Virus record (IMG/VR): IMGVR_UViG_2695420662_000003
Span: 1-64,000 of that record
Length of the DNA stretch: 64,000 nt
Origin: a virus
Taxonomy: Duplodnaviria > Caudoviricetes
Strand: one strand, 5' to 3'
In this document: positions 4,819 to 62,527 of the stretch, piece after piece
How the letters are laid out: each line of letters opens with the position of its first letter
Numbering within the stretch: position 1 is the stretch's first letter
The notes under the pieces: model-generated
What the model was told of the DNA's origin: nothing
What the model saw: the letters and a program-made list of their open reading frames with translations, nothing else
Database searches by the model: none
Translations under genes and position numbers: made by a program

Positions 4819-4909
4819 TTTTAAACCTCCATATGTACATTATTTTTAATTTATAAAAGTGCCATATATGGCAACTAATTTTCTAATTTAAAGACATAAA
4901 ATCGTCATT

Positions 4910-6877
4910 TTATGTACCCGTATAATATTCTATACTGCTAACATCTGTACTAACTATTAATACGGTATCTACTTTTCCATAATCATCATAAGTATTAATA
5001 TCTTTTAAACCCCATGCTGAGAGTTGCGCAGAGTTTCTACCAAATATTTCTTTTGTTAAATCCTCTAGTTTATTAGAATTTGTTTCTATTATATGTACAT
5101 CTCCGTTTTTCATATTTATTTTCCAATTATACATTCTAACCTCTCCTGTATTTTTTTTATTTTTACTCTTTCATATTTAATTCTCTTTTTATATTTCCAA
5201 CTCTTGTATTGACCTTATCAATAAGATCTATTACGTCATTAGCTGTTAAATCGAAACCATGTTCAGTCATAGTATTATAAACATCCTCTAATTCACTCTC
5301 TATTAACCACAATTGCTTGCATATGTACTCTTTATTCATCTTCTTCATCATCTTCTGTTTCATAATACTCTTCCCGTAATATTCTTCTGCCCAATCCCAT
5401 ATCGCATATTCATCAATTAAAAAAGTCTCAAGATAATCTAATGCTGCCATCTTATTTCTAACTTCTTTTATATAATAATCTTCATTACAATCTAAGTAGT
5501 TCCTTGTGGCTTTTATTATATCTCCCCTTATTTCTGATACTTTAGATTGTATAAAATCTTTTATTACACTTACTTTTTTATCCATCCTAATACCCCCATT
5601 GGTGTTTTATTTCGTTTGTATCTTCATCTACATATATCCAGCAGTCACTCATAAAATCGTCATCCGTACCTTCTCTAACCTTTGGATATATAGTATAGTC
5701 CTCATTAAAATAATCTTCCGATACAATCACTTCAAGTAATCCGTTTGGTGAGTTAAATATACGTCTCCACAACTCATTTCCTGTTATATTATGTTCGATG
5801 TGATGTATCATTTTGTTTATATAATCTTGTATATTCTTATCTACCTTTTCAATATCAAAATTCTTATATGTAATCTTCAATTAATTACTCCTAATTAAAT
5901 TATTGTTTTATTAGTTCTTACTACTTGTTAGACTTACAAAGCCAGGGAATAAGAATCCCCATAAAGGTGTTGCAGATCTAGTTATGTATATTGCCACTGA
6001 TATGGCAACTGCAACAGATATCCAAACTATTGCATATGCCATATACGCTACCATATTTACTTTTGCATTGTCACTCATTTTTTTACCTCCATATAAAAAC
6101 TTATTCTTATTTTGCTTTTGCATTTTTAATTATTTCTTTGATTAACTTTCTGGTATTCTTTCCTATATCTATAATTTCTGAAATAAACCGAAAAATCCAT
6201 ATAAAAATAGCTATTATAGATATTAGTATCCATAAGTGAGTTTTTAATAAATAATACCCATATTACGAATAATAATATTAACATCCAAATTATAGCAACC
6301 CCCCTAATCCAATTATAAAATTCATATGTACACTCCTTAATGGTTATATCTTTGATTTAAGATATTTTTACATACTGTTTTCAACTTACTTTTATCTATA
6401 GTATTTTTATCATGACAAACACCCATACACCATTCAGATATAATTAGTGTCATTAATTGTTCTGAGGATATATTACCTATAATACGCTCAATATAATCTA
6501 TATACTCACTTATAATTCTTTTAAATCCTATCCACTCCCACTTAAAATAATCAACTCCATATTCAGTACCATCTTCATCGTCTATATATGATCCTAATGT
6601 TGAAATCATTATATCTCTTCTATATAAATCTAATAGATTATCCATAATGCCTCCTTATAAAACTCCTCTTTTATGTACTTTACATTTCTTCTAAGTTACA
6701 ATTAACTTTTACTATTTTGAAACCTCTATCTTTTCTTAATCCTTCAAAGTAATACGCCGCCCCATCTAGTGAACTAAATCTTATTGCTTCAACTATATCG
6801 TCATTGTTATCTCTCATAAAATTGCTATTTATAAAATTTCCTTCTCCATCCATTATTGTATAAAATCTCTTTTCCAT
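4910..6877 (-). other. Cluster of small hypothetical ORFs (4910-5134, 5163-5585, 5587-5880, 5911-6123 membrane protein, 6337-6645, 6680-6877)
   Basis: Co-oriented ORFs, most with GGAG-type RBS; no recognisable family. Confidence 0.65.
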
Positions 6878-6984
6878 ATGTACTTATTCTCCTGTTCTAT
6901 ATTTTTATAATGCTCCTGATAAAATCCAAATTTTATGTTCATTTTAAATCATACACCTTAGTAATACCAGTGGTTTCATAATTA

Positions 6985-7211
6985 CTATTTCTTTGGCATT
7001 TCGTATTTATCAATATTTCCTAGATTATTTATCATATTCTCAAATACTTCCTTTGTTCTATCTTCTTTATACTCCCTATATTATTCCAAAATTCATCCTC
7101 GTTTCCAAATCCATAACCAGCTCCAATACTGCATATTCCACCTTTTACAGAATTTAACCAAAAATTCGTCGCCCTCAAAACATGTTTTCTATCTTGACTT
7201 ATTATCCACAT
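6985..7211 (-). pseudogene. Small phage gene with 1-nt frameshift near 7074-7076
   Basis: MWIISQDRK..WNNIG continues in the -1 frame as EYKEDRTKEVF..YEMPKK-stop; span is 227 nt, one short of a whole number of codons. Confidence 0.55.
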
Positions 7212-7283
7212 TATTCAATTCTCCCTCTCATATGTACTTGTAAAGGATTAAGAGTTTTTATTTCCTAACCCTTTACACTAATA

Positions 7284-7312
7284 ATTATATATGAACTTAT
7301 CATACTTGTAAA
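7284..7312 (-). promoter_or_regulatory. sigmaA promoter with 15-bp operator
   Basis: TTTACA-17-TATAAT; TATGAACTTATCATA at 7290-7304. Confidence 0.8.
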
Positions 7313-7318
7313 GCATTT

Positions 7319-8791
7319 TTATAAAATAAATTCATTATTTTTTTCATTCACAATATGTATTTTGTTAGTTCTATTCATTTTACTTAACTCATGTTGTAAT
7401 TCCTCTTTCAGCTCTTCTCTAGCATCCATGTTACCATGATGTAAAACCACCCTACATGAATTATTTAACCCTTTTATCATCTCAATTATTTCTTTTTGTT
7501 GTATATGACTTGAGAAGGTTTTATATTGCTTAATCCATGCATTCTTTTGAAAATCTAATCCTTCTATTTTAACTGTTTTATGTTTTTTATCTGTCATAAA
7601 ATCGCCTAACGTACCATTTCCAACATATCCAGTAAACATGATACAATTTTTTCTATCTTCAACGGTAGATTTTACCCAGTGTACTGAGTGGCCATTTGTC
7701 AAGAATCCTGAACTTGATATAACTATACATGGAAAATCTTTTTTACTTGCATATAATTGTGTGTCTTTAAATTCTTTTATAAACTTAAAGTTTCTCCAGG
7801 ACATTATTTTATTCCAGTATTCTCTATCTTCCTCAGTCAATATTTTTCTATATGTATTATTTATTTCGTTTGTAAGCCTACTGTCTATTATTATGGGTAT
7901 ATTGAATCCTTTATCATTACTAAAAGCCTCATAAAGCATTGTCATCAATACTTGTGATCTGCCAAATGAAAATGTAGGTATTACAACTTTACCCCTATTC
8001 TTGATTACTTGTTTAATAGTCTTTATCATATTTTTACGTTCGTCAATTGCTTCTTGCTTAGTAAAACCTCTTTGTTTACTTCCATATGTACTCTCCATTA
8101 TTATCATACTTGCTTTTGATATCGCAGCATTATCCTCTAAGAACGGCTGGAATTTTTTATTTAATTTACTACCTACATCTCCGGTATATATTATTTTTTC
8201 TACTTTACCAGATACTCTCTTTATAAATAATTCTATCATAGCAGCACCTACAACATGTGAATTAGGTAATAATCTAAATGATAGATTTGAGTCCAATTTT
8301 ATTATCTTATTCATAGGATATACATCTGTATATTTTTGCATTGCTATATGTACATCTGATTCCTTATAAAAGCATTCTACATTCTTATGTTTCTTAGATT
8401 GTAGAGATTCAACATCTCTATTATGAATGAATACACCATCTAATAATAATTTGTAGGCTATTTCTTTTGTTGTTTCATTCATTATTATTCTGCCATTAAA
8501 TTCCCTACTGGATGTTAGAGGTAGACCCATCGAATGATCACAATGTGAGTGAGATATGAATATATATGAGACATCTTTCAAGGGATTATTTTCTATCATA
8601 CGTTTATTTTGTTTATACTCCTCATATTTATCTCCTACACCTTGAATTATACCAAAATCACAAATTATATTCTTTCTAGAATTGATATCTTCACAATAAT
8701 AAGATATATTTACACAACTTCCGGTTACATCTATAGAACTACCACCTGTAAACCTAACTTTGATTTTATCATCTATTTTCTTTTTACCCAT
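7319..8791 (-). CDS. Metallo-beta-lactamase/beta-CASP nuclease (Ysh1/CPSF73-like RNase family)
   Basis: VTGSC, SHSHCDH, HVVGAA, YTGD, MESTYG, PTFSFGRSQ, SSGFL, FSSH, LHHG motifs. Confidence 0.92.
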   Translation of the reverse strand: MGKKKIDDKIKVRFTGGSSIDVTGSCVNISYYCEDINSRKNIICDFGIIQGVGDKYEEYKQNKRMIENNPLKDVSYIFISHSHCDHSMGLPLTSSREFNGRIIMNETTKEIAYKLLLDGVFIHNRDVESLQSKKHKNVECFYKESDVHIAMQKYTDVYPMNKIIKLDSNLSFRLLPNSHVVGAAMIELFIKRVSGKVEKIIYTGDVGSKLNKKFQPFLEDNAAISKASMIIMESTYGSKQRGFTKQEAIDERKNMIKTIKQVIKNRGKVVIPTFSFGRSQVLMTMLYEAFSNDKGFNIPIIIDSRLTNEINNTYRKILTEEDREYWNKIMSWRNFKFIKEFKDTQLYASKKDFPCIVISSSGFLTNGHSVHWVKSTVEDRKNCIMFTGYVGNGTLGDFMTDKKHKTVKIEGLDFQKNAWIKQYKTFSSHIQQKEIIEMIKGLNNSCRVVLHHGNMDAREELKEELQHELSKMNRTNKIHIVNEKNNEFIL

Positions 8792-11250: not shown

Positions 11251-12390
11251 CTAGGAAATTTTATTTCTAAATTCATTAAATATTTCATCTAACTCTTCTA
11301 TTCCATCGGAAGATAGCCACTTCCATTCCCATTTATCTTTCCATGCTTTATATTTATCTTCAATACTCAAATCATTCTCTACAAAATTACTTTTTATCTT
11401 CTGAAAAGTACAACTATTATCTATAAATCTTTTAGTTATAGAATTCACTAGTATTGGAGTAGCATTTGCATATTTAGTATTAACTGTAACCAGTTCTTCT
11501 TGCGTAGACACCGGAATCGCTTTATCCCCATGCTTTTCTTTAAACTCCACATAAATCTTCTCACCTATTTCGGCATCTTTTTCCTCATATCTCCAATCAC
11601 TTACTATATATCTTACATCTAACGCATCTTTATCAATTAATTCATTTAAACGAAAATTATTTTGCTCTTTCCACATTCTTGATGTAGTGTGATATATATC
11701 GTAACTATTTACTAAGTCTCTATCTCTACCTATATTTAAGTATTTTGGTAAAATATCATATCCGTATGACAATTCATCGTTGTCACCTATAAACAAACCA
11801 TTTACGAATAATTTACCCTTGAATTTATCATCTAGTAATATATTTCCGTATTTTGATTTTAATAAATTTTTCTTATATGTACTTTGTAAATGTAAGCATC
11901 TTTGTATTAATTCTTTATATATATCAATATTTATACCTTCTATTTCGATAGTTAAATTATTGTTAGGAATCTTCTTCCATATATGCTCTGTTTCAACATA
12001 TATAGTTAGTACCTTTTCACCTTCATATCTTCTAGATTTGACTAATTTAGAAGTCCACACCTCCCTTTTACCATAATTATATATTGTTACATTATATCCT
12101 AGTCTAGTTAATACTAATAATGCTATTTTATACCCTTCTCCAAATTGACCTATGGTATCCTCATCATTTTCCTTTGAAGTATAGCCTAGTAATAAAGTTT
12201 TCTTTTGCAATACTGAATTCTTATTCGATATGATTAATTTATTATTACCATCGTACTCTATACTCATATCATTATCCTCTACTTGTTTTTCTTGATCTAT
12301 AGCATTTTGTATTAATTCTCTTAGTGACTCTTGCACTCCCCATGTATTTGCATAACCACTAGTTAAACTTAACTCAAATTTTTGTTTCAT
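11251..12390 (-). CDS. GHKL (HATPase_c)-type ATPase domain protein
   Basis: LRELIQNAID, LLLGYTSK, IGQFGEGYKIA motifs. Confidence 0.8.
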   Translation of the reverse strand: MKQKFELSLTSGYANTWGVQESLRELIQNAIDQEKQVEDNDMSIEYDGNNKLIISNKNSVLQKKTLLLGYTSKENDEDTIGQFGEGYKIALLVLTRLGYNVTIYNYGKREVWTSKLVKSRRYEGEKVLTIYVETEHIWKKIPNNNLTIEIEGINIDIYKELIQRCLHLQSTYKKNLLKSKYGNILLDDKFKGKLFVNGLFIGDNDELSYGYDILPKYLNIGRDRDLVNSYDIYHTTSRMWKEQNNFRLNELIDKDALDVRYIVSDWRYEEKDAEIGEKIYVEFKEKHGDKAIPVSTQEELVTVNTKYANATPILVNSITKRFIDNSCTFQKIKSNFVENDLSIEDKYKAWKDKWEWKWLSSDGIEELDEIFNEFRNKIS

Positions 12391-12418
12391 TTTAACATCT
12401 CCCTATGAAATTACAGTT

Positions 12419-12979
12419 TTAAGTTAATTTTTTATTTATCCAAGCAACATCTAATGTCTTTGGATTTATATGTAATATATTTTTATTATGTTTTAATGCA
12501 TAGTTTATACAGTTCCAAGTTCCACCTTTTTTAATTCCATCCCAACATGCTATAATGTAATCTGAGTTGTCTACCATGAATTGATTTCTTAACTGCATTT
12601 TAGCAGCACTATATTCCCCTACTACGTTACCCCTAGGCTGATATCCTTCTATCTGATCTACATAATATAAATTATTTGCGATTTCTTTATAATCATTATA
12701 TTTATCTCTATCAGATTTAAACCACTTACAATCTTGTTTTCTAAATGGTATAGCCAGATTATTTTCTATGTCATATATACGACTTAATTGTCCAACTTGT
12801 TCAAAGGCCATCATATCGAACCCTATTGCTCCACCACTTAAAAACTCATTTACTCCACACTTTTTAATTAAGTTCTCGCACAGTTGATATAATAATCTAT
12901 TTAACTGATGATATTGTCTGTTATTCAAATTATAGCCATATAATTTATTAGGTCTGTGACCTGTAAAAGAACATCTCAT
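12419..12979 (-). CDS. SLOG-superfamily protein (YspA/DUF1273-like)
   Basis: FTGHRP, SGGAIGFD, RNQFMVDNSD, WDG..GGTWNC. Confidence 0.88.
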   Translation of the reverse strand: MRCSFTGHRPNKLYGYNLNNRQYHQLNRLLYQLCENLIKKCGVNEFLSGGAIGFDMMAFEQVGQLSRIYDIENNLAIPFRKQDCKWFKSDRDKYNDYKEIANNLYYVDQIEGYQPRGNVVGEYSAAKMQLRNQFMVDNSDYIIACWDGIKKGGTWNCINYALKHNKNILHINPKTLDVAWINKKLT

Positions 12980-15238: not shown

Positions 15239-15260
15239 ATGTACTGTTCCTCCAGAATCA

Positions 15261-19003: not shown

Positions 19004-19103
19004 ATAAAATCCTCCTTTTATCTATTAAATTGTTTAATTAAAATTGCCTTATATGGCATTCCCCGTTTAAATATGTACTCGGTTACTCATTAACCTTAAC
19101 TAA

Positions 19104-21434: not shown

Positions 21435-21709
21435 GTCTCCCTTATATTTATAAATATCCGATATTTAATTATGTTTTCCGTTCGATTAAAATAGGCATTT
21501 TATTGGAATTTTGCACTCTGAGAACTGGTATTTCCAATATCTCCAGAGTGATGTTTTATATTAAATTGTATCTATCATATGTACTATCCTTTATATTTTA
21601 CGTCCTAAGACCATATTTTCATAATTATTAATATTACTATTATTAGACTAAATATTTGCATTGCTGCAAGCCCTACAAACGTCCGTATCAAGTTTTCATT
21701 TGTCATACT

Positions 21710-23217: not shown

Positions 23218-23256
23218 TAAATCCTCCTTATTATATTAATAATATCTCAATAAAAG

Positions 23257-23994
23257 TTAAATTTTATCTACATTTTTAATCCTGTCCATCGCAATATTAT
23301 AATAATTCTTATCTAGTTCAAAACCTATATAATTTCTATTTGTGTTCATCGCTGCTACTGCAGTTGTTCCTGATCCAATACAATTATCTAAAACAGTCAT
23401 ACCTTCGTCTGTATATGATTTTATTAACCACTCACATATATCTGTTGATTTTTCTGTCGGATGTATCATTTTTGATGGATGAGGCTTGCTAAATTCAAGG
23501 ATGGACGTTGGGTGCTTCATATCACCTAATTCCTTAGAATTGTCTACAAAGTCAAAACTTCCATAATTGTTATTTTCATTATCTTTTACCTTCCCTTTTG
23601 AATGATTTGGTTTACCTTTTACTTTTTGAGGATTGTATTTTGGGGCTTTCTTATAAAATATACATATATCCTCATGCTGTCTCAACGGCATTCTATTTGC
23701 ATTTAAAAATCCGCTAGATAAAACCTTATTCCACACCAGATTATATTTCCACATAGACTTGTTACTTAACATTAACTCCGCAGTAAACATTCCATTTGCA
23801 AATAATGCTATAACTCCATTATCTTTTATAATTCTTTTATACTCTTTCCATAGTTTATCAAATGGAATAACGCTATCCCATTTGTTTTTTGTTTGCCCGT
23901 AAGGTAAATCGCATAATATCATATCTACTGATTTATCCCTTAATCTCTTCATGCCTTCCAAACAATCCATATTATATATCTTATTTAATTCCAT
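23257..23994 (-). CDS. Beta-class N4/N6 DNA methyltransferase
   Basis: DCLEGM, CDLPY, HPTEKS, VLDNCIGSGTT, IGFELD. Confidence 0.92.
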   Translation of the reverse strand: MELNKIYNMDCLEGMKRLRDKSVDMILCDLPYGQTKNKWDSVIPFDKLWKEYKRIIKDNGVIALFANGMFTAELMLSNKSMWKYNLVWNKVLSSGFLNANRMPLRQHEDICIFYKKAPKYNPQKVKGKPNHSKGKVKDNENNNYGSFDFVDNSKELGDMKHPTSILEFSKPHPSKMIHPTEKSTDICEWLIKSYTDEGMTVLDNCIGSGTTAVAAMNTNRNYIGFELDKNYYNIAMDRIKNVDKI

Positions 23995-24034
23995 ATGTAC
24001 AAAACTCTCCCAATAAAATTTTAGTTTTATTTGT

Positions 24035-28646: not shown

Positions 28647-28850
28647 ATATGTACATTTACTCCTTAAATTTATTTTTAAAATACAACATTGTCACCGAAC
28701 TTATTATATTTTAATCCTTACAATCTTTACGATATACACCTTTTGCGAATCTTATATTAGTCATTATATGTACTCCTTATGTAATATTCCAAATAAAATC
28801 AGTCTTTTATTTCCATTTTTATGTATATTTATTTATTTTTTTTGCTTATA

Positions 28851-32283: not shown

Positions 32284-32952
32284 TTAATATACCTCCACTT
32301 CAACCCCTCGCGCTCTTAATTTATCAACTACTTTATCCATTTCTTTTGTTTGTTTTATTATATTATAATCTAACGCAATATTGTTTAACTTATCTCTGTA
32401 ACATTGATTATTTATCATTAGTTCACATTTTTTACAATCATATGTACATTTTTCTATTTTGTGACTACCTATTTTTTCAAATAAAATACATATTTCATCT
32501 ATATATTTTGGCTTAGATTCTTCATATATCTCATATTCTGCATCTGTATTAAGGTCTACACCTTGCCTTCCTTGGCTAGATATAATCTTTCCGTCTACTT
32601 TTTCTAAATATACTCCTGAAGGCATTTTAACATCTCTTATTTTTACACCTTCATCTAATAATTTTAATGCTTCAAAAATATTCATATATTACTCCTCCTA
32701 TCTAAAAATTACTATATCTCTTATATCTTTATTAAAGTGTGCAGTAAGTTTTATCGCTCTCTCTACTAAATATTTATGCTCGTCTTTATAATAGCAATTT
32801 AAAACTCCATCCTCTTCTATTATCACCATATCTCTATCCTTACATATTTTATCTAACTCATCTTTCGTTGATCCATCAATGCTTTTTATTATTTTACCAT
32901 CTCTAACGTAAACTCTTGCTATTTCCATAAAAAATATATTATCTTTTCTCAT
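32284..32952 (-). other. Two hypothetical ORFs (32284-32685, 32698-32952)
   Basis: Co-oriented with RBS. Confidence 0.65.
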
Positions 32953-44587: not shown

Positions 44588-44635
44588 TACTTTTTATGAG
44601 ATTTTTATATTTTTAATCAACATGAAATTGACATT

Positions 44636-45257
44636 TTATTTACTTCTCAATTCTTTCAATCTATCTATTAATAAAATTAAATCATGCTTATGCAATTCTA
44701 TACTCCTATGAGTATAATGATTATTTTTATCTTCTTCCTCTATTGTGATTACTACAAAATCTTCATCCAAGTCTTCAGCATATAAAAATGTACCCATACC
44801 ATCTGATAACATAAACTTTTTCATATAATTCTCCTTAATTTTCTACTAATAAGTCACATACTGGTTTATCTAATACAGCTTGTATTTCATCTTGTAAACT
44901 ATATGGCTTTAAATCACTTTTTCCAAGTCCATAAAGAGTATCTCTAAATTTTTGATCACTTATCATATCATATACAGTTAAAACTTCATCTATGAAATCC
45001 ATAGTTTCTTCTAATTCGGCTCTTTTACCTATCCAGTAACCTTTGCTCCACATTCCATGTTTACTTAATTTATCTTCATTTTCATATTCTTTTATTCTAG
45101 ATTCAATTCTCTTATGTCTACGATGTAATTCACTTTTTCTACTTCTTAATAAGTTTTCAACTTGATTTTCTAACATTATTAAATCTCCCTTTAAAACATT
45201 TATTTTATTAACTTTTATATTTCTACTAAATCCATAGTTTATGTTAATTACTTGCAT
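44636..45257 (-). other. Two hypothetical ORFs (44636-44824, 44835-45257)
   Basis: Co-oriented; second probably starts at MLENQ. Confidence 0.6.
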
Positions 45258-45461
45258 ATTTTGTCTATTTGTTCGTAAACTAATATCAATAGGTATATAA
45301 GTTTTATTAAATCAACTATCATTACAGCACCTCCTAATCATACTATGTAATATATCTACTTACATTGTATCTTAGTCCTGTAACATTCTTACTCGCTTGT
45401 ACTGTAATTAATCTATACCTAATATCCTAAACCCAGTTTTAAATAAAAGTTATTTTTCATC

Positions 45462-46562: not shown

Positions 46563-46564
46563 AT

Positions 46565-47113: not shown

Positions 47114-47379
47114 AATATTCCTCCTATAAAATAATACTTTTATTTACTTTTAGTTATATTAAACATTATACTCATAAACTAATAATCTTTATCCTCTCTA
47201 TTTTCATATGAAATTCTCGCTATTTTAGATAAGCATTCCATGCATATAAAAATTTCACCATTGTAATCTTTATATACAGGTTTAAACCCTACGATAACTC
47301 TATCTATTTCTTCTTGATACTTCCCACACAAACTACATTTAAAAATATCATTTTTCATTTGATACCCCTTATAAAATTT

Positions 47380-47838: not shown

Positions 47839-48083
47839 AATTTAATCTCCTTTAATATTAATTTTTATATGTACTTACCACTTAAAAGTAAAATTTTATC
47901 CTATTCTAAATATTTATCTATATCTTTAAACATATCTTCATTCTTTGGAATTTCTTTAAACGTCGCTAAATATCTCTTATCTTCAAAATCCAATAATATT
48001 TTATTTCTATCGCAATAACTAGTACCACACCAAATATCTTGTAACATATTTAACATTCCACTTAACTTATGTACCATATTTAT

Positions 48084-50614
48084 CTATACCTCCATGTACT
48101 CTTCTATTGATATGAATGCTTGTTCAAATCCGTTATTATTTACTTCAACTTTTAAACACTCTACTTCAAAAGTTCTTGATACACAATAATCTTCATCTCC
48201 AAAGAATACATATGTATCATATTTATTCCCTTCTTTTAAATTAGTTAAGGTTCCAGTACTGTGAATATTTTTTATATTATATATTTCATTAAAGACTCTG
48301 TCCATTTCCCACATATTTTTGTTGTTAATCCAAGTTTTATATTTCATTTTGATTTCTCCTTTTATATGATAAAATTAAGATTTTATCTTGTTTCATCTAT
48401 AAGTTTATTTATTATTCTTTTATATGTTTCATTCTGCTGTGATAATATTTGTTTTACTTCATCCTTATCCCATAATGCCATTCTATTTATTAACTTCATA
48501 GTTTCTTTATTCAATTCATCTAACTTCTTATTTATAACGTGTTTTTCTAAATCGTTAATCATAAAAATACCTCCTTTTTAAAATTTTATTTAGTTTTTAC
48601 TATTCCATCAAAAATTCTTTATAGTTGGGAAGTTTTATATATCCTTCTTTTAAATTCTCATCTAGTAATCCACTCATTATTTCAAAAATTTTAATGTAAT
48701 TCAATGCATCTCTAATATTTCTCTTATATCCTTGAATTATTCCGACATTATAGTCTACTATGCAAAATATACTTCTTTTATTGCATTTAATCTCATATAT
48801 GCGATATATACCTTTGTCTGTAGCTATACCTTTTATAAACTTGCTTTTCACTTTATGCTTTTCAAGCTTTAAATCTTCTAATCTTATATTATACTCCGTA
48901 ACTCTTTGGAATTTCTTGTTTAAAAGCTCTCTATCTTTCTTATCCATTTTATACTCTCCTTTTAAAATTTTCATTTTATTTATATTATTTTCTTGTTCTT
49001 GTTTTTCCACATTTAGTGCATTTAAATCTTAAATATCCATTTCCTCGTTCAAGTAATACCCATCTATGAGAACAAAATAAACCCATACTATTCTCTCCTT
49101 CTATTTTCTTTTAAAATCTGTATTCTATCTGCTTTTAAAAATCACTTTTTACTATCCTCTCTATTTCATCCCAACTCGGAATATGATCTAATTCCTCATA
49201 TATTTTCGTAACTGGAGTTCCATACTTCCACCAATAAACTATCATTGCATAACTTTTCGGATGCTCCATTACTGAAAAGCTAATCCTCTTATTATCTATA
49301 TTTCTTATCCTAAAATCCCAAGTTGACAAATAAACATCTTCAATTTTATCATCTATTAAATAATGTCCTCTTCTAAATCCATGTCGCTCCATATATGGCA
49401 ATTTATACTTCTTATCTTGTTCTAATTGATGTTTATATCTAAAGTTTTCTATATAGTTGTCATATATGTGCATATCTTTTGCATAAATCATTCTTTACCT
49501 CTTAAACTTTCAATATGATTAATTATAGATTCTACCAATCCTATTTCTGTCTGTTTTACTATCGCATCCTCTACATCATCTATGTAGGTTTCTTCTATTT
49601 CGCTTTTTAAACTGTATAAATAATCAAGTACTTCGTTTATCATAATTCCCTCCAGATCCCAATAAAAGAACGATTTTATTCAATTTTTATTTTATATGTA
49701 CTTTACTACCAATTATTAACCCCCATCAATGCCACTATAATCCATGCTATTTGTGTAAATATTGACAATCCACCCATGCATGTTTTTATTATAGTTAAAG
49801 CACCCAATATATACATAATTATTTTCAATATTTTTAGTATATCTAATTTCATATGTACTTATTCTCCTTTATCAAATTCATATTTCATACCTGTATTTCC
49901 ACAACGCTTGTTCTGACAAATACATAAACTCTGATCTTCTCTAACTTTATCTTCAAATACTTTTACATTATTTGATTTGCATTTTCTACATCTAACCATT
50001 ACTTAACCCACCTAAATGTTGTTCTACCACACTTCTTACAAACATACAGACTATTCCCATAATGTAATTCTAAATCTTCTTCTGGGCATCCAAATAAATG
50101 AATCATCCAATAAACAAAACTCTTTAATTCTCTCATATGTACTCTACCTTTCAAATCTCTTTAATCTTTGAGTTTTAGACTTCCTATACTCAATAAAAAT
50201 CTCCTGTTCTTTTCTTGCTTTTGCAATCCTATCTTTCTTTTGTTTCTCCATAAAAGCGTTTACAAATTCATCTTTAGAAACTACTATATTCATTTTTTAT
50301 CCCCTTTTTCATATGTACTTAAGATTTAATTCATCTTATACTTATATTGTATGATAAGTTCATACCATTGTCAATCATTATTTTTAAAATTTTTATTAAA
50401 TTGTTGATGCCTTTATTTTTAGTTCACACTCTTTACATTCTCTATTTAGATTCTCTAATATTTTATCGATCATGTCAGTAGTGCCCCTAAATAGTTTATG
50501 TGTTGGTTTTTCTAAATCATTCGCCACAAACACAGATATAAGCCTACATTCCTCATATTCTCTAATTTGTCCTTTAATCTGTTTTAACTTGATTTCTAAT
50601 TCTTTTATATTCAT
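48084..50614 (-). other. Array of small hypothetical ORFs (48084-48347, 48600-49010, 49135-49491, 50396-50614 and many under 60 aa)
   Basis: Co-oriented micro-ORFs with RBS, several Cys-rich. Confidence 0.6.
50346..50374 (-). promoter_or_regulatory. sigmaA promoter with 15-bp operator
   Basis: TTGACA-17-TACAAT; TATGATAAGTTCATA at 50350-50364. Confidence 0.85.
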
Positions 50615-51654: not shown

Positions 51655-52566
51655 TTATATATTATTTCTTTCTGCTATTTCTATTGTTTGTTCTATTAAA
51701 CTTAATACAGTCATTTGTCCAATTCCTCCTGGAACTGGCGTAATGGAACAATTCTTCTCAACCAATCTATCATAATCTGATTTAGATACATCCCCACACA
51801 TCTTACCATTTTCATCAAAGTTAATAGATATATCTATTATAGTTGTTCCAGGTTTAAAATCCTTTGATTTAAAGAAATTAGGTTTACCTATTGCAGTAAC
51901 TACAATATCCGAATTCCATACCTTATTCATTAAATCGTTTGTTTTACTATGTGCTATTGTAGGCGTAGCATCATTTTGTAACATAAGCATACTCAGTGGT
52001 TTACCTACGATATTACTTCTGTTTATGATTAATACATCCTTACCTTTAACGTCTATATTATTCTCTTTTAACAGTGTCATCACACCTTTTGGCGTACATG
52101 CTATATTACCATCTTGCCCAAGTATTAATTTCCCCATATTTTCACTTGTAAAGCCATCTACATCTTTTTTAGGATCTATTAAAGATGTTAAATAATCCTC
52201 GTCTAAGTGTTTAGGTAGTGGTAATTGCAGCAATATAGCAGTAACCCATGCATTATCATTTAATACTTTTATTTTATGTGCTATTTCCGATTGAGATATA
52301 TCTTCTCTTAGATGTATAATTTCTGATTCAATTCCAACTTCTTTACATTTATTTATCTTATTTGCAACATATTTACCTGATGCAAAATCATTTCCAACTC
52401 TAAGTATTACTAATTTCGGTTTTTTATTTAACTTACTAACTCTAACTTTTAACTCTTCTATTTTATCTTTTACTAATTCTTTCGCCTCTAATATCTTCCC
52501 TCTATTCATCACTGTCTCCTTATTTATATGTGCTGCTATATAATCTGTTGTTTGTATTTTCTTCAT
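51655..52566 (-). CDS. folD: Methylenetetrahydrofolate dehydrogenase/cyclohydrolase
   Basis: LLQLPLP, KDVDG, CTPKG, RSNIVGKP, GDV, ITPVPGGIGQMT. Confidence 0.95.
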   Translation of the reverse strand: MKKIQTTDYIAAHINKETVMNRGKILEAKELVKDKIEELKVRVSKLNKKPKLVILRVGNDFASGKYVANKINKCKEVGIESEIIHLREDISQSEIAHKIKVLNDNAWVTAILLQLPLPKHLDEDYLTSLIDPKKDVDGFTSENMGKLILGQDGNIACTPKGVMTLLKENNIDVKGKDVLIINRSNIVGKPLSMLMLQNDATPTIAHSKTNDLMNKVWNSDIVVTAIGKPNFFKSKDFKPGTTIIDISINFDENGKMCGDVSKSDYDRLVEKNCSITPVPGGIGQMTVLSLIEQTIEIAERNNI

Positions 52567-52588
52567 ATATAATCCTTACCGTTAAAAC

Positions 52589-55500
52589 CTATATTTTATT
52601 TACTTTTAAATCATCCTTTATTAAAAACTCCCTTATTTCATTGCAAGTTCCATAATAATCTTTCCCTGCTATCATTGCTCCATGAAGTGTATCATTTGGT
52701 CTAAAAGGTTCTTTTATTCTTGTTTTTAACTCATCTATTAATTCTATTAAATCCCAATTTTGATAATCATATCCTTCTACGTATTGACGTCTCATATTTT
52801 AACCCCTCCATATGTACATAAAATTTATTTTTTATCATATTTATCTTCAAATTCTATAACCGAAAGTAAACAAGATATTTTACCTTTGGCACTATGTAAA
52901 CTTTTAATGGAATTTTCCCCTGAACACCATACGTCATTTAAATCACTCATTATCGACTGTAATATACATTTAACTGAATTTTCATTTACTCTCATTTTTT
53001 CTCCTGTTTTCACCAATAAAAAGATTATTTTATTTATTGTTATGATTTATTTATTTTGTCTTAATATAGTTCTATATTTTAAACATTTTTTAAGAAGTCT
53101 ATCAAAATTTTTACCTTTTCCTATACAAGAACACCCTTCTTGTTGTTTTTTATCTATTACAAACGATAACTCCTCCTCTGCTAATAAAACACTTATCATT
53201 TTTTGACCATTTATTTCTTTTATTCTATCCATAATATTACCTCTGCTTTTTTATTTTTTCTTCTTCATATTTAAACTGTTCTAAATACTCTTTGCTTAAA
53301 GGCTTCTTCATAATTTAACTCCTTTCGATAAAAATTATATTTTATTACCTGGTAAAACTTTTAAAATCTTTACATGACTCAGAAAAATAATCCATATGAG
53401 AATTACATTTATTACACCATTCGGCCTGGTAATTATCACAAGTTCCACAGATAGCACTTTCATCATAAACCTTAGATTCTTTTATTTCTAAGATATATAT
53501 TTCTCCTATTATATTGTCATTTATCCACTCATATAACTCTTCTTCTGAATTAAGTTCAACTTCAAATTCTTCTGAACCTCCCATAAACTCATATTTCCTA
53601 TATTTTAATGTAAATAGTGTCTTATAATGCTTAAAATACTTTAATTCATCTTTTTTAAATCTCATATTTACCTCCTTTCTAAATAAATACTATCTTTTAT
53701 GATTGTTCTAAATATTGATTATAAATCCTATTCTCACATTCTTGACATAGTCCTTGATGTAAAAGATAGTAGCGATAATCTAATTCTTCTCCGCAAATAT
53801 CACAATATTTCATTTCTTTCATTTTTATATCCTCCTATTGAATGAATTCCAATTTTCATCTAATTCATACTCTGGACAAAAATTCTCATTTTCTTTTATT
53901 ATATCATCGGCTCTTTGGGGTAAAGTAAAACCATGACATATTATTAATCCTGTAGATGTCATATATCTTCCATTTTTACAATTATAACATTTTTGATTAT
54001 ACATAACTCCTCCTATTAGTAAATGAAAGTTCTATTTTATTTAAAATACTTTTCATAATCCTTTGTTGTTGCGTCTATATTATTTATATCTAAATCATCA
54101 TCCCATTCAAATTCTACAGTCTCACTATTACCAACGTGATATATGCAATCTGTACGATCTGCTAAATAGTTTATAAAACTATCGACTGTCTCAAATTGAT
54201 TATTATAATCCACTATATACAACTCTATTTTATGTAATTTTTCCATATGTACCTCCGCTTAAATATATTACCTTTTATACATCCATCTTTTCTATGCTAA
54301 TTATTCTATCTATATTTAACACTATCTCGCTATTGTCTTGATCTCCAGTTAACACAATGAATTTATTTCCTATATATATTTTTTTTAATAAATTCATCAA
54401 CAGTTTTATAATTTCCTATATGAACTGCTGTTACACCATCCGTAAGCGCTATTTTTAATTTCATGTTACTTCCTCCTTGAATTATTTTTTAATTTTATAC
54501 TTATACTTTAAATTTTCCAATATATAATCAAATATTACTTCTTCCATGTATCTTCTTCTATCGTCTTCACTCATATCTTCAAATTCATTATCATCTATTT
54601 TCATTTTAAATTTTTTGAATTCTCCAACTGAATACCCCATACAATTTATAGTGAATTCTATATTCATATTAGTCCTCCTTATAAAATCATCATTTTATCC
54701 TTATATATTCTCTGTATTATCGCATTTGTTGCACATAACGTAATATCCATTTGTAGTAAGATATTCATCTTCTCCGTCCCAACCCCAATCAAAGTCTTCT
54801 TTAACACTTACATCTCTACTTCCACAATTTAAACATTCTATTTTGAAATTCTCCAATACAATTACCTCCAACTTGAAAATACTATTTTATCTAAGTTTCT
54901 TACCACACATTGGGCAAAAATTTATCATCTTACCATACAAACTGTCATCTTCCCCACCTCTTTTATTTTCCTCCAAGTAACTACAAGTGTTTATTTTTAT
55001 CATGTGATTATTTTTTATTCCGTATAACAGTGGTTTTCTTTCTGTCCATCTCCCATTACAATATTTGCAACCGTCATAGTCTAGATTTTTTAAATATATT
55101 ATAAGATCTTTCATATACTTAATTCTGTCTCCAAAGTTTTCATTAAATTTCTTTATATTAACACTTTTACTCCTTTTTATATTTAATCTCCCTAATTCAT
55201 CTTCCAATAAGGCTATCATAAAGTTTACCTGTTCCCTATTCATATTTCACCCCTTATTTATTCCCTATAAGTATCATATATTTCTATAATCTTAGTTATA
55301 TCTTTATCCAGTTCATAATTTATATGATCTAACTCACAAGTTATATTTTCTATTACCAAACGACCCACCGCATCACTTAATCTGTCTAACTCTTCAACAT
55401 TTCTAATTTCTATTATCGACAATACATGTTCCTCATCATAATAGTCTTTTACGTGTATATATAACATATTGAAATCCGATAACTCATTTTTATATTCTCT

Positions 55501-55765
55501 TATATCTTTGTTATAAGTTCTCTTTAATAAATACCTCATGTTATCCTCCTAATTAGAATATTAGATGCCATAATGCTCTTAATGTTCTTTTCCATTCGCC
55601 GTTTTTATTTAACTCAAATCCATCTATAAAAACTTTTCCATTTATTGTAGTGATAGAAACCCCTTTCATGCCCTTAACCCAAGGATATTCTATACCGTTT
55701 ATTGCAGTAATTCTTCTATTACTATTTGTAACCACTGAAACTTCATTACTCTTTTGATCGTTCAT
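52589..55765 (-). other. Dense array of small hypothetical ORFs (52589-52795, 52825-53016, 53047-53232, 53345-53665, 54037-54246, 54482-54667, 54887-55243, 55258-55539, 55553-55765 and several under 60 aa)
   Basis: Co-oriented, mostly with GGAGG RBS, many separated by WTRAAA-N6-TTTYAT sites. Confidence 0.7.
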
Positions 55766-55786
55766 AAAATCCTCCTAATAAAAATG

Positions 55787-56305
55787 TTATTTTATTGACC
55801 ATCTAGATTTTGGTTTTAATGGTGGTAAATTCAAATGTCTCCACACTCTATTCGTAACTAACTGGGAAACAAATGATGGGTTAACATTATATTCCTCAGC
55901 TATATCTTTATATCTCATTTTTCCTTCTTTGCATTTATTATAAATTTCCATAACAATATCTTCATCAAGTTTACTCATATAACAACTTTCTCCGGATCTT
56001 TTCTTTAGTCTCTTTGCTTCATGTTGTTGATTTTCTTTCTTAGTTACCCATTCTAAATTATCAACTCTATTATTAGTTTTATCTCCGTCTATATGATTTA
56101 CCTCTGGTTTATTCTCTGGATTAGGTATAAATACTGTGGCTACTATCCTATGAAGCCCTCTAATTATCCCAAGATTTCCACCATTTATCATTGTAGTAAC
56201 ATACCCACTTTTTGATGGTTTTGTACTTAAATATTCTCCTTTTTTATTTATAACCTTTCCATAATTAGAAACTTTATAGCCATTAATTTCTCTCCATTCT
56301 TCCAA
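55787..56305 (-). CDS. NUMOD4-HNH homing endonuclease
   Basis: [49 protein letters not shown]-terminal HTH. Confidence 0.92.
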   Translation of the reverse strand: MEEWREINGYKVSNYGKVINKKGEYLSTKPSKSGYVTTMINGGNLGIIRGLHRIVATVFIPNPENKPEVNHIDGDKTNNRVDNLEWVTKKENQQHEAKRLKKRSGESCYMSKLDEDIVMEIYNKCKEGKMRYKDIAEEYNVNPSFVSQLVTNRVWRHLNLPPLKPKSRWSIK

Positions 56306-56350
56306 TTTTATTTACCTCCTTAAATTCGTACTTAAAATTCTAATTTTATT

Positions 56351-57686
56351 CTAATATATTTCAAATTCTTCGCCACAATCTAAGCATCTACCATATTTTT
56401 GACCACCATGATAGTATTTTTCATAGTTTAAACACTCACATCCAACTTCCTCTACACTCTCTTTAATAAAACTACCCTTTCCACCTATTACCTTTGCACA
56501 AAAAGTTTTTTCTATATTATCTGATATTTCATCTTCCACTTGATTTAAAAAACTGCTCCAACTATCAACTATAACATCTTCGTTTACTAATATTTTTGTA
56601 GTTATCTCCAATCCAACTATCTTTTTCATGCTATTTATCCTCCAATATATCTTTTATTAAATTATCACAATCTTTTATGAATTTTTCTTTTGCTTTATGA
56701 GTATATACATCCACATAATTATCAAGTCTTAGCCCATCTCTTTTTATTTTCTCTATTCTATCTATAAGTTCTCGTTTATACATATTTTCCACCTACCAAC
56801 TATAATCATATTTTATTTTTGCTGCTTTAAAAACATATATTATTTTATTTTCCTCTTTTAAAATTTGCATACATTTACAATGTGTTTTATTATTTAATAT
56901 TATTTCATCGCCAGGTTCATATTCGTAGTTCTTTCTCGTTCTCATATCCTCTACTTCTCCAGGTGTTATTATTCTTATATATTTTTCCATATTATTTCTC
57001 TCCATACACTTTTTACATTTTTATTTTATTTTATTTTTAAATTTCTCTCTTCCTGGTAAATATTTATTAAAACCTTTCACCTCATCAAATTCACAATTTA
57101 ATACTGCAAATCCAAGCCTAACTACTTCTCCATTGTAGAATACACACTTGCTGCCACTCATAGTTATTAAAGCGTGTGGTATTTGTGATTCATAATCTGT
57201 ACCCCAATAAAATTTATCTTTTATCTACATTTCTCTCAACAATTTATTTAATTCTTTTACTACCGCTCTATGTTTTTTGTTTGCATCTCTTATTGCTGCT
57301 TTTGCTTTTATAACATCTTGTTTCTTAAGGCATAAATCTAAACCATAATCCAAATTAAAAATATCTTCATCTAAACATACCGATCTAACCTTTTTACCTT
57401 TTTCAATTAATTCTATCGTTTTTCCATTTGTTCTATATGCAAACGTCCTGTTCTCATAATTAGGATCATTTAAGTGTCTTTTCCATTCGCCCCAAACCAA
57501 AGGTTTCTCTTCTACTTTTTCAAAGTATTTTTCAAACTCATCATATGACATTATTCCAGTTCCATAATTTGATGATATTGTAATAGTACCTAATTCATTC
57601 ACTCCTGTTATTTCAAATATATCTCCTATTTTATCAAAACCTCCTATAGCTTTTATTAATTTTATCTTATCTCCCTTTATTAACAT
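56351..57686 (-). other. Hypothetical ORFs (56351-56629, 56793-57005, 57225-57686)
   Basis: Co-oriented ORFs. Confidence 0.65.
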
Positions 57687-58831: not shown

Positions 58832-58860
58832 TTTTAATCTCTCCCATATGTACTTATTTA

Positions 58861-59201: not shown

Positions 59202-59457
59202 TTTTTTATTTTTCTAAATCTTTTATTTTAGAACATATCAATTCTGCATTATGAATATCCTCTAGATATGTTTCAAAATATTCTACTATCTCACTAACAT
59301 CTTTTTCTTCTTGTAATACAACTGTCATATTTATATTAAAATTCTTCATTTTCCAAATTATCTCCTTTTTATTTTATTAAAGTAACAATGAAAATCTTAT
59401 TTTATTGCTTTCTTTTATATTTTCCTTTTTAATTCTTTATATGTGCATTTGGAGTAA

Positions 59458-60676: not shown

Positions 60677-60715
60677 TTTTTACACTCCCTGTATATGTAA
60701 GTTTATTATAACTAA

Positions 60716-60744
60716 ATAATATCATACTTTCTCATATATATCAA
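60716..60744 (-). promoter_or_regulatory. sigmaA promoter with TCATA half-sites
   Basis: TTGATA-17-TATTAT; TATCATAC and CTCATA in spacer. Confidence 0.6.
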
Positions 60745-61046
60745 GTGTTTATCAAAATATTTTTTATCTTTTGTATATTTAATTTTAATCATATGTACTA
60801 ATAATTTATTTTCTAATTTCAATTACTTTATCATTCTCTAACTTAACCAATATTCTTCTTCCTGCTAATGTTATTGCAGTCCATACATTTTTATACTGGC
60901 GCTCTAACAATCTACACATTCCCATATTTTCAATCTCGCTTGTTAAGATCCTCATATCACTCATATTCAATTCTCCCTAACATAAATTTTAAAGGTGTGA
61001 ATATAAGTTTATGCCGTAGATCCACACCATAATTACCATAAGAATA

Positions 61047-61697
61047 CTATTTTCGTTTATCTATCTTCTTAATTAATCTATCTATTCTCTTCTGACAATC
61101 GTCATTCCACCCTTCTTCTAATGCCTTTTGAGTTAATTCTAATGCTTTATCATATTCTTTTCTTTTTTCATATATTATCGCTAATTGCTTATATCCTGTA
61201 TGCGAAGGTAGTTCTTTAAAATATTTACATTTTTCAAATGCTATTTTACTTTGATTAGATATATTTATTTGTTTCTCACAGTATTCTATCGCTCTATCTA
61301 GTGCATCTGTATAATTGTCTCTATTTTTATATAAAACTCTTATACAATTCAAATAAAAGAAATGCACGTCTAATATATCTTTTGTTTCTTTTATATTATC
61401 TTCTCCAAGTTGTATAATCTTTAATGCTATATTATATCTATCTACATCTTTAAACCAACCCACTAATCCACCTATAAATGCTAGTTTTGATGCGGATGTA
61501 TAACTTATACTCCCCTTATCAATTATTATATCTTCTCCAGATGATGTAATTGGAGTATATGTTTCTCTAATAATTCTTCTTTCATTATCATTTAATTCCT
61601 TGAGCCACCAATCCTCAAGATTATAATACTTAATCCATCCTCCAACTTTTATTTTCTCATTCCCTTGGTAAATACCCTTTGAAAATATCTTACTCAC
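61047..61697 (-). CDS. TPR-like helical repeat protein
   Basis: AIEYCEKQI, GYKQLAIIYEKRKEYDKALEL. Confidence 0.7.
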   Translation of the reverse strand: MSKIFSKGIYQGNEKIKVGGWIKYYNLEDWWLKELNDNERRIIRETYTPITSSGEDIIIDKGSISYTSASKLAFIGGLVGWFKDVDRYNIALKIIQLGEDNIKETKDILDVHFFYLNCIRVLYKNRDNYTDALDRAIEYCEKQINISNQSKIAFEKCKYFKELPSHTGYKQLAIIYEKRKEYDKALELTQKALEEGWNDDCQKRIDRLIKKIDKRK

Positions 61698-61722
61698 CCC
61701 TTAAAACTATTCTTTTATTTGA

Positions 61723-62252
61723 TTAATTTAAAGTGGTCATTTCTTTTAATTTATTTTCAACTTTTATAACCTTAACTTTTAATTTATTTATTTCATTAGC
61801 ATTGCTCTCACTTAATATCTCTAATGTTTCAAATCCGTCATTCATTTTGTATTCCATTTTATTTAATCTTTTATTTATATCTTTTACTTCTGATTGAACT
61901 TCCTTTAAATCCTTTTGCATATCTAAAAGTATTTCTAATATTTTATTGTCCATATTCTAACCTCCTAAAGTTATTATCTAACTATTATAACATAACTTAA
62001 TTGCTGTTGGTGTTAAAATCGTGATTTCATGTACCATTATACCTTTTCTACTATTACATCAACTCTACATCCATGTTTATTTGCAGCAATATGATTAAAC
62101 AGTACTACATGATTAATCTTTATAACTTTATATTCCTTGTTTAAAACCATTATACACTCTTCAACTCTTGGTATAAAATCTGATTCATATTGAGTCAGAA
62201 AACTATCTCCTTTTGAATTACGTAAAAAAACTTTAATCACTTTCAATCTCAC
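61723..62252 (-). other. Two small ORFs (61723-61953 coiled coil; 62037-62252 hypothetical)
   Basis: ORF track, RBS present. Confidence 0.6.
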
Positions 62253-62287
62253 CTCTATTTTTAATTTATTGCCTCTTTACACTAATT

Positions 62288-62316
62288 ATTATATGATAAG
62301 TTCATATATTTGTAAA
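62288..62316 (-). promoter_or_regulatory. sigmaA promoter with 15-bp operator
   Basis: TTTACA-17-TATAAT; TATGATAAGTTCATA at 62292-62306. Confidence 0.82.
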
Positions 62317-62527
62317 CTTATTTTTGAAGTTTTTTATATAAAGTTTTCGACAAAATATAAATAAAATCACACTTTCATGTATTAAAATAAACCTGGACTA
62401 TCAATTCTTACAAATTAATGCAAGAATAATGAAGTAGATAATCCAGGTTTATTTATTATGTTATTCACAACTTGAGAGATTCTCATTATAATTTTAATAT
62501 ATTTCTATATTGTATGTCAATTTATAT

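Follow-up and report, generated by a model that had tools for sequence, protein, structure and literature searches.

The attC sites of integrons are 57–141 bp long, work as a folded single strand with a defined crossover, and stand next to an integrase, attI and Pc. On the side of gene regulation, the AT-box operators (the ComK K-box, those of MogR and phi29 p4, and the CRP-type 5-N6-5 arrangement) have phased A/T-tract arms and occur at many sites per regulon. Both kinds of system were compared with a palindrome of 18 bp, WTRAAA-N6-TTTYAT, that is repeated in the first 64 kb (64,000 nucleotides, hereafter the window) of the 130,836-bp IMG/VR virus record IMGVR_UViG_2695420662_000003 (working name of the whole genome, G000). 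A first-pass annotation of this DNA had taken the palindromes as junctions of an integron-like cassette system, at which a phage recombinase would gain, lose or shuffle accessory genes. In the present analysis the motif was confirmed and extended, its link to gene exchange was supported in part, and the integron-like mechanism was left unsupported.

Two phage systems also serve for comparison. In T4-type phages, promoter-early stem-loops (PeSL) were described as mobile regulatory cassettes that consist of a sigma-70-like promoter and a terminator stem-loop, with insertions, deletions and replacements that end at the motif by recombination between copies, and with mini-circles that arise by exchange between neighbouring copies (Arbiol et al. 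2010, PMC2839356, in the parts of that paper cited here). As in that account, the palindrome is a short repeat of the plastic, ORFan-rich part of the genome, it flanks small non-essential genes, and it stands at the ends of insertions, deletions and replacements between relatives; unlike the PeSL depicted there, it has no promoter hexamers and no stable stem, is only 18–20 bp long, and lies inside operons. The second system is SPBRE, a conserved 15-bp palindrome in promoter regions of the Bacillus prophage SPbeta, bound at about 10 ChAP-seq peaks by MrpR (YopR), a master regulator that has a tyrosine-recombinase fold and lacks recombinase activity (PMC10516654, likewise in the sections cited). 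As presented in those sections, this case shows that a recombinase-like palindrome can be a pure operator. The motif of the window resembles SPBRE, as portrayed there, in being a palindrome repeated in intergenic regions of a large (~130 kb) temperate Firmicute phage, and differs from it in lying within operons, in being four times more frequent, and in that the recombinase of this genome keeps its catalytic residues.

In the phiCD211-like phage-plasmids of Peptostreptococcaceae the motif is a conserved intercistronic signal. The short spacers that it occupies separate co-oriented genes of the early, nucleotide-metabolism and accessory classes; it often starts at the upstream stop codon and ends a few bases ahead of the ribosome-binding site, with which it forms an island of ~30 nt that is repeated ~40 times and is a preferred edge of exchanged gene modules. 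We regard the element as a repeated signal of regulatory type, which we infer to be its primary role, that doubles as a module boundary. It also provides a simple, searchable landmark of large phage-plasmids from gut and clinical Peptostreptococcaceae, including the Clostridioides difficile elements phiCD211, phiCDIF1296T-like and LIBA6276; no description of it was found in full-text searches on these phages, which possibly did not cover the main phiCD211 survey.

The palindrome and its place between genes

In the window, WTRAAA-N6-TTTYAT gives 54 strand matches, i.e., 32 distinct sites, compared with a mean of 2.08 strand matches in 100 dinucleotide shuffles of the same DNA (standard deviation 1.8, maximum 8). 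All 27 start coordinates listed at first pass match the pattern exactly, and five further exact sites were found (19004, 32481, 45191, 48962 and 61701); from the list of copies with one mismatch, 5894 and 53683 stood, whereas 49111 and 53842 proved to be weaker. A comparison of spacer lengths had been suggested at first pass, and it came out in favour of the motif. The spacer of 6 nt is specific, since in the whole genome it gives 41 sites, versus 0–10 for each spacer of 0–5 and 7–15, and the strict form ATAAAA-N6-TTTTAT occurs at 20 sites, versus 0–3 at other spacers. The one-mismatch form is about twice the background (26 at spacer 6 versus 4–21 at the others), and the two-mismatch form shows no excess at spacer 6 in the whole genome.

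The element is an AT palindrome of 18–20 bp, (A)ATAAAA-N6-TTTTAT(T), with the core TAAAA-N6-TTTTA, that is, two inverted arms of 5–6 bp with a non-conserved spacer of 6 bp between them. Read in the direction of the genes its consensus is A-ATAAAA-(T)NNNN(A)-TTTTAT/A, and T-GG is often next. The half-site variants ATGAAA and TTAAAA are found in either arm, and the 6-bp centres, once the strands are collapsed, are distinct in all 41 sites of the genome.

Intergenic enrichment, which had been proposed as a check, was found: 36 of the 41 sites lie between genes, and the five intragenic ones (32481, 66267, 69954, 99946 and 114608) equal the background at other spacers (~4.8). Sites are concentrated in the early (minus) arm, where 28 of 73 gaps of at least 30 nt hold one, versus 2 of 28 in the late arm (p=0.0016). 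The first-pass annotation had placed almost all sites at the upstream stop and before the next ribosome-binding site; with gene calls that are crude, as they are for all the unannotated genomes used here, 21 of the 36 intergenic sites overlap the upstream stop or start no more than 6 nt from it, and 18 end no more than 22 nt ahead of the next start. An anchoring to the stop within long gaps (9/22 versus 2.6 expected) was not reproduced in the T. mayombei element described below (2/12 versus 1.4) and is not relied on. No exact site lies between 32481 and 44622, in agreement with the gap noted earlier for the replication block at 33–44 kb, and the DNA methyltransferase (MTase) gene 23257-23994 and the HNH gene 55787-56305 are indeed bracketed by sites, each mobile HNH gene having its own copy of the motif. 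The name 'LemA-like', given at first pass to the pair at 45462-47113, was not confirmed by any Pfam match.

The record, which has a terminal repeat of 97 bp and a G+C content of 28%, represents a phiCD211-type phage-plasmid, and its genes from ~2.5 to ~75 kb are on the minus strand. A close relative was not found in the phage collection (near and distant modes) or in IMG/VR (queries with the DnaE, PcfJ-like and FolD-like proteins). The closest deposited record is Clostridioides phage pCD1602_4, with a DnaE 51% identical, and the closest genomes are Terrisporobacter elements, with a FolD-like protein 73–74% identical; among metagenome and genome contigs the best FolD matches reach 73–75%. The T. 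mayombei element (the 124,753-bp contig G001:C3 of a Terrisporobacter mayombei assembly), of which only 7.6 kb of DNA is alignable with the 130,836-bp genome and which shares homologues for 53 of 182 open reading frames (ORFs), has 20 strict copies versus 0–2 at other spacers, and its palindrome reaches 20 bp; two contigs of a second Terrisporobacter assembly (G002) have 8 and 4 strict copies. In pCD1602_4, TAAAA-N6-TTTTA was counted 21 times versus 5.0, and the core motif 16 times versus 2.2 in the 43-kb early region of phiCD211 and 9 times versus 2.7 in the early region of LIBA6276. According to the deposited annotation, on which the phiCD211 positions rest, all 16 copies are intergenic, 13 of them are no more than 8 nt from a stop, and all are 12–40 nt ahead of a start.

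The motif is not in excess in Bacillus phage Kirov or Thomasclavelia phage TR-TP1. A scan of IMG/VR with its 20-nt form gave single chance matches among the matches listed, which carry no weight here. Three Terrisporobacter genomes (2.9–3.8 Mb) have 152–156 copies, versus 166–187 for the reversed control; because these chromosomes show no excess, the host does not use the motif. Its enrichment in very distant relatives and not in the Terrisporobacter chromosomes therefore indicates a lineage-wide, phage-specific signal. Moreover, the dUTPase and MTase homologues are preceded by the motif in both the 130,836-bp genome and the T. mayombei element, and the finding that the same orthologous genes are so preceded despite almost no DNA identity points to a gene-linked signal. 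It is extremely unlikely that the motif has no function of its own, being a by-product of the stop codon, the AT-rich spacer and the ribosome-site context, or a scar copied with modules: the left arm does contain TAA, which is often the stop codon itself, and the genomes have 26–28% G+C, but the spacer specificity is strict, host chromosomes of the same composition show no excess, and the arms persist across genomes whose proteins are 25–50% identical.

Breaks of homology and gene exchange at the motif

Because the 130,836-bp genome has no close relative, the association of the motif with breakpoints was tested in related pairs of motif-bearing elements, by counting gaps with at least one homologous flank, motif-bearing versus other. 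In the first pair, the T. mayombei element and the G002 contigs C69 and C189 (blocks 82–98% identical, covering 42% of the element), breaks were found at 11 of 15 motif gaps and at 32 of 71 other gaps (p=0.086); in the second, phiCD211 and LIBA6276 with their deposited annotation, at 6 of 6 and 9 of 19 (p=0.051). Pooled, 17/21 motif gaps and 41/90 other gaps are breaks (p=0.0037), or 17/21 and 32/62 when only gaps of at least 25 nt are considered (p=0.022). A third pair, phiCD211 and pCD1602_4, which is not independent of the second, gave 5/6 and 12/26. Thus the coincidence of breakpoints in relatives with the sites, proposed at first pass as a check, was observed as an enrichment that is real yet modest, the majority of breaks being elsewhere; among 72 true homology switches in the first pair, 44 are in or next to gaps, 6 are within 5 nt of a motif, and 66 are away from it.

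Ten junctions stand at a motif edge. Homology can start exactly at the 5' edge of the motif, which then travels with the downstream gene; it can stop in the 3' arm, in which case the upstream ORF takes the motif along; or it can stop 13–21 nt beyond, where the start codon lies. If the motif is present in both partners, the crossover cannot be placed exactly within the identical arms. In LIBA6276, three additional genes are inserted directly after one site. The clearest footprint of exchange or deletion between two copies is the difference between phiCD211, which has two tandem sites 6 nt apart (L321 19672-19713), and LIBA6276, which has a single hybrid site with the core of the second one (L322 ~9480).

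Four DNA runs were also compared, which contain only fragments, as assembled contigs of distant samples. Contigs from two of them lack 61032-61699, with the 216-amino-acid TPR protein gene, and the breakpoint is 1–2 nt from a site; in a further run, the similarity of a contig stops and restarts inside two sites (Table 1). Joints in the runs, mostly with 20–23-nt sides at repeated promoter/operator copies, were left out of the counts, and among the 24 loose ends listed (788 more) 3 are no more than 12 nt from a site, a number without statistical significance.

Since the crossovers are scattered over the island formed by the motif and the ribosome-binding site, and all 41 cores are unlike, recombination is expected to proceed through short shared sequence and not through a core-specific recombinase. 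By analogy with the PeSL, the pattern appears to fit a short-homology shuffling at a repeated signal, and the crossovers in the island would probably be the work of the phage's own annealase, exonuclease and resolvase set; on the minus arm there are genes for a Sak4-like annealase, exonucleases and a RuvC-like resolvase. The PeSL idea, formed on T4-type coliphages, would in this way come to cover temperate phage-plasmids of Firmicutes, in which the repeated signal is of another kind. As homology breaks are associated with the motif, the trade in small genes among these phages can be put as a concrete rule that is open to test.

What stands of the earlier proposal is that homology breaks between relatives are enriched at the sites. 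That a phage tyrosine recombinase binds the arms and exchanges DNA within the 6-bp core, so that each ORF and its site form an integron-like cassette, is very unlikely. Inverted arms around 6 bp do fit a recombinase core site with its overlap of 6–8 bp, and the tandem and single sites of phiCD211 and LIBA6276, as well as the enrichment of breaks, would agree with such an exchange. As in integron arrays, an imperfect inverted repeat directly follows each small promoterless ORF and the edges of the units lie at the repeat. The search beyond the window for tyrosine recombinases, also suggested at first pass, yielded two complete Xer-like genes, at genome 68662-69597 and 129338-130276, the former with the catalytic Arg, His-x-x-Arg and Tyr retained, and an intact Xer-like recombinase is common to this genome, the T. 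mayombei element and G002:C69. However, classical tyrosine recombinases require matching overlaps and the overlaps here are all different; the junctions, instead of being confined to the core, are scattered between the motif's 5' edge and the start codon; 66/72 switches in the first pair are elsewhere; forty active sites between essential genes would delete those genes; sites are kept ahead of orthologous genes across deep divergence; and no homologue was detected in pCD1602_4 by the query with this recombinase. There is no attC-like fold either: in contrast with attC, the element has 18–20 bp and an arm hairpin of −0.26 kcal/mol on average, and in contrast with an integron, no recombinase lies in or next to the arrays, neither attI nor Pc was found, and the sites extend over a stretch of 70 kb that, in the window, has at least 8 sigma-A-like promoters in its interior.

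There is a slim chance that phiCD211-like phage-plasmids, including the C. difficile phages, have a dedicated cassette exchange in which the ORF and its palindrome are mobile and unlike cores are tolerated, carried out by a conserved phage enzyme, either the Xer-like recombinase or the annealase and exonuclease pair guided by a binder of the motif. If true, this would be the phage counterpart of the integron and would explain the spread of accessory genes among these elements.

Candidate functions of the palindrome

Of the readings considered, the one that we tentatively favour is that the motif is the double-stranded DNA operator of a phage-encoded, symmetric (dimeric) DNA-binding protein. 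This candidate role is proposed because of the dyad symmetry, the fixed spacing, the unconserved centre, the half-site variants in either arm, the phage specificity, and the persistence across deep divergence. A dimeric phage protein would read the two A/T tracts one helical turn apart, and this putative binder would regulate the early arm as a block, for example through silencing or a roadblock while the element is a plasmid-prophage, or through early-gene shut-off. The AT-box operators also have inverted A-/T-tract arms about one helical turn apart and an unconserved centre; in contrast, their spacer length differs (N5 for ComK and MogR), they are located at promoters, and no homologous protein was identified in this genome. 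As an operator, the motif would define a regulon of ~40 junctions that spans most early and accessory genes, and would point to an undescribed global regulator of the plasmid-prophage state.

Several observations weigh against an operator. The symmetry is accompanied by a partial polarity in this genome and in phiCD211: the single-mismatch sites of this genome vary seven times at position 18 and never at the mirror position 1 (p=0.016), and in phiCD211, 13 of 16 sites have T at position 7 while only 6 of 16 have A at its mirror, and the right arm is TTTTAA in 15 of 16 while the left arm is split 8 and 8. The binding protein was not identified in the genome, and the only Xre-type HTH protein (73118-73309) has a different repeated palindrome of its own in its promoter region. 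The sites are internal to operons instead of standing at the sigma-A-like promoters, which carry a different palindrome of 15 bp. With regard to the breaks, each pair by itself gives p=0.05–0.18, and the enrichment may come in part from motifs and breaks both concentrating in accessory regions. Finally, the polarity and the closeness to stops and ribosome sites would equally fit an RNA-level or a promoter-like signal, and given the polarity of the motif relative to the genes these two readings stay alive.

The binder was also looked for by phylogenetic profiling, and this route was set aside, since the proteins common to this genome, the T. mayombei element and pCD1602_4 include no evident regulator; they are the ParM-like protein and its partner, an MTase, DnaE, DnaB, an HNH protein, a 39-amino-acid ORF, a 406-amino-acid protein of unknown function and structural proteins. 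Neither a MazE/AbrB fold nor sigma-70 domains were found in the genome, and the product of 62528-63292 has a weak ParB/Srx-like match in an N-terminal domain.

At the RNA level, an RNA-binding protein or a nuclease, from the phage or the host, would recognise the A-rich and U-rich boxes just ahead of the ribosome-binding site, with the effect of tuning translation, setting the 3' end of the upstream cistron, or processing a polycistronic early mRNA. Although unlikely, this signal would account for sites that are intercistronic in long units without terminators, for the frequent contact with the upstream stop and the short distance to the next start (21/36 and 18/36, as given above), for the stereotyped layout of phiCD211 with its 12–40 nt from site to start, and for the polarity with respect to gene direction; in addition, the phage encodes a MazF-like endoribonuclease and a beta-CASP/RMMBL RNase-like protein with a homologue in the T. 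mayombei element. However, complementary arms are expected of double-stranded DNA or of a hairpin, and the hairpin is unstable, with a mean of −0.26 kcal/mol (range −1.4 to +0.9) and arm pairs of more than 0.5 probability in their context at 12/36 sites. Compensatory G-C changes were not seen, given that G3 (5 sites) and C16 (7 sites) never co-occur, but with ~0.85 joint occurrences expected this carries no weight; no Rfam family was matched in a search with the motif. The beta-CASP/RMMBL protein itself (RNase J/CPSF-like; window 7319-8791 (-)), 34% identical to its counterpart in the T. mayombei element, could take part should the motif work on RNA.

A middle-class promoter is improbable. In this case TAAAAT would be a -10-only element for host RNA polymerase modified by a phage factor, as in T4 late promoters, and many early-arm genes would each have their own transcription start. 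A -10-like hexamer is indeed suggested by the T at position 7 in 23 of 36 sites here and in 13 of 16 in phiCD211, and the distance of 12–40 nt to start codons, the class-specific distribution in the early arm and the own copy of each mobile HNH gene would also be in line with it. On the other hand, the last T of the hexamer is missing in one third of the sites in this genome; the start point would be forced into a T run where the ribosome site comes 2 nt after the motif; this reading gives no account of the second arm, which is just as conserved, and a palindromic promoter would work in both directions; neither a sigma factor nor an RNA polymerase gene was found by sigma searches and annotation of large ORFs; and some sites, such as 44622, stand at operon ends upstream of a sigma-A-like promoter.

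Two simpler signals were considered and rejected. A sigma-A-type promoter was discarded on the grounds that no conserved -35/-10 hexamers flank the motif, together with the incomplete TAAAAT just mentioned, and an intrinsic terminator because the arms have only A/T and no G+C-rich stem, with 0 terminator-like sites in 44–64 kb.

Sites of the window and neighbouring features

Table 1. Copies of the 18-bp palindrome in the window and positions of two other repeats. Starts and stops refer to the genes named by their coordinates.
Position	Strand	Element	Context
4896..4913	-	exact	overlaps stop of 4910-5134; upstream of dUTPase 4216-4818, whose T. mayombei homologue is also preceded by the motif
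5894..5911	-	one mismatch (position 16)	intergenic
6657..6674	-	exact, core GAGGAG	5 nt past a stop; 11 nt before start of 6337-6645
6919..6936	-	exact	41 nt before start of 6680-6877
12405..12422	-	exact, TTAAAA..TTTCAT	overlaps stop of 12419-12979; 14 nt before start of 11251-12390
19004..19021	-	exact, core GGAGGA	abuts start of HNH endonuclease 18005-19003
21486..21503	-	exact	57 nt before exonuclease gene 20250-21428
23250..23267	-	exact	overlaps 3' end of MTase 23257-23994; 32 nt before MTase 22567-23217
24013..24030	-	exact	18 nt before MTase 23257-23994, whose T. mayombei homologue is also preceded by the motif
28793..28810	-	exact	146 nt before nrdD 26517-28646
32481..32498		exact	inside ORF 32284-32685; probably a chance copy
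44622..44639	-	exact	overlaps stop of 44636-44824; just upstream of sigma-A-like promoter (44587-44559)
45191..45208	-	exact	14 nt before start of 44835-45176
45443..45460	-	exact	1 nt past stop of 45462-46562
47126..47143	-	exact	12 nt before start of 46565-47113
47882..47899	-	exact	1 nt past stop of 47901-48077; similarity of related metagenome contig begins at 47910
48369..48386	-	exact	overlaps stop of 48383-48562; related contig similarity stops at 48385, inside site
48962..48979	-	exact	14 nt before start of 48600-48947; related contig similarity picks up at 48974, inside site
49662..49679	-	exact	18 nt before start of 49488-49643
52582..52599	-	exact	overlaps 3' end of 52589-52795; 15 nt before FolD-like 51655-52566
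52818..52835	-	exact	between micro-ORFs 52825-52995 and 52589-52795
53016..53033	-	exact	between 53047-53232 and 52825-52995
53328..53345	-	exact	overlaps stop of 53345-53665
53683..53700	-	one mismatch (position 13)	intergenic
54023..54040	-	exact	overlaps stop of 54037-54246; 18 nt before 53825-54004
54681..54698	-	exact	2 nt past a stop; 13 nt before 54482-54667
54873..54890	-	exact	overlaps stop of 54887-55114
55778..55795	-	exact	overlaps 3' end of HNH 55787-56305; 12 nt before 55553-55765
56332..56349	-	exact	1 nt past stop of 56351-56629; 26 nt before HNH 55787-56305
57207..57224	-	exact	abuts stop of 57225-57686
59388..59405	-	exact	38 nt before 59206-59349
61701..61718	-	exact	3 nt before TPR gene 61047-61697; contigs from two runs without 61032-61699
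62013..62030	-	exact	6 nt past stop of 62037-62246
62361..62378	-	exact	between two sigma-A-like promoters (62520-62491 and 62316-62288)
7290, 13181, 31727, 33012, 44565, 50350, 59187, 62292		TATGA-N5-TCATA	window
67968, 71536, 72419, 75762, 75865, 85930, 112636		TATGA-N5-TCATA	genome beyond window
2558, 4831, 6324, 9404, 13128, 15237	-	GTACATAT	window, examples

The minus arm encodes replication proteins (a DnaE-type polymerase, DnaB, primase, gyrase-like subunits and ligase), enzymes of nucleotide and other metabolism (NrdD/NrdG, dUTPase, thymidylate synthase and a FolD-like enzyme), two DNA methyltransferases, at least 4 HNH endonucleases and numerous small ORFs, while the remaining genome has a Rep3 initiator, an actin-like partition protein, the two Xer-like tyrosine recombinases, TnpB, an FtsK-like protein and structural genes. 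Four free-standing HNH endonuclease genes lie in the window at 15261-16049, 18005-19003, 38592-39701 and 55787-56305; one HNH gene sits between the genes of the gyrase-like subunits B (16052-17893) and A (13214-15301), and another between primase and helicase. On the plus strand, the 117-amino-acid ORF at window 336-689 corresponds to only the N-terminal SAM-like domain of a tyrosine recombinase, and next come a partition gene of the actin-like (ALP/ParM) type and a small partner ORF (955-2203 (+)), both of which are kept in the three relatives compared.

The second palindrome, TATGA-N5-TCATA (mostly TATGATAAGTTCATA), is 15 bp long and is present in 15 copies, versus 0.5 at other spacers. It occupies the 17 bp that separate TTGACA-like from TATAAT-like hexamers, and downstream of each copy there is a short 5' hairpin, followed by GTACATAT and a ribosome site. 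TATGA-N5-TCATA has the appearance of an operator through which a master repressor would act on all early promoters, and by analogy this repeat, and not the 18-bp motif, may be the true counterpart of the SPBRE of SPbeta, as far as the cited sections of that report describe it. It is absent from the relatives checked.

In the whole genome, the 8-mer GTACATAT has 110 copies on the sense strand and 2 on the antisense strand (~4.6 expected), and G is the next base in 100 copies. Of the sense copies, 50 are intragenic, 13 supply the start codon, 19 are no more than 45 nt upstream of a start and 28 are at other intergenic positions. The word switches strand with the gene arms at ~75 kb, and thus has a polarity resembling that of Chi or KOPS words; nothing like it occurs in the T. 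mayombei element. It contains what we take to be the pentamer cut by Firmicute MazF enzymes. At genome 72490-72843 (+) (L003:8490-8843, the L003 coordinates being genome positions beyond the window, with L003:9118 equal to genome 73118) there is a solitary gene for a MazF/PemK-like endoribonuclease (Pfam E=7.6e-34), behind an operator-bearing promoter, for which no MazE-type partner was detected. The MazF-like gene and the 110 sense copies of GTACATAT raise the question of whether the phage processes its own mRNAs.

The sole Xre-type HTH protein of the genome, with 63 amino acids, is encoded at 73118-73309 (-) (L003:9118-9309). The region upstream of its gene has two copies of a different repeat of 14–17 nt (TTGCATATTTGCAA), which is probably its own operator. 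Beside it lies a 39-amino-acid ORF that shows ~50% identity in the T. mayombei element, pCD1602_4 and G002:C69.

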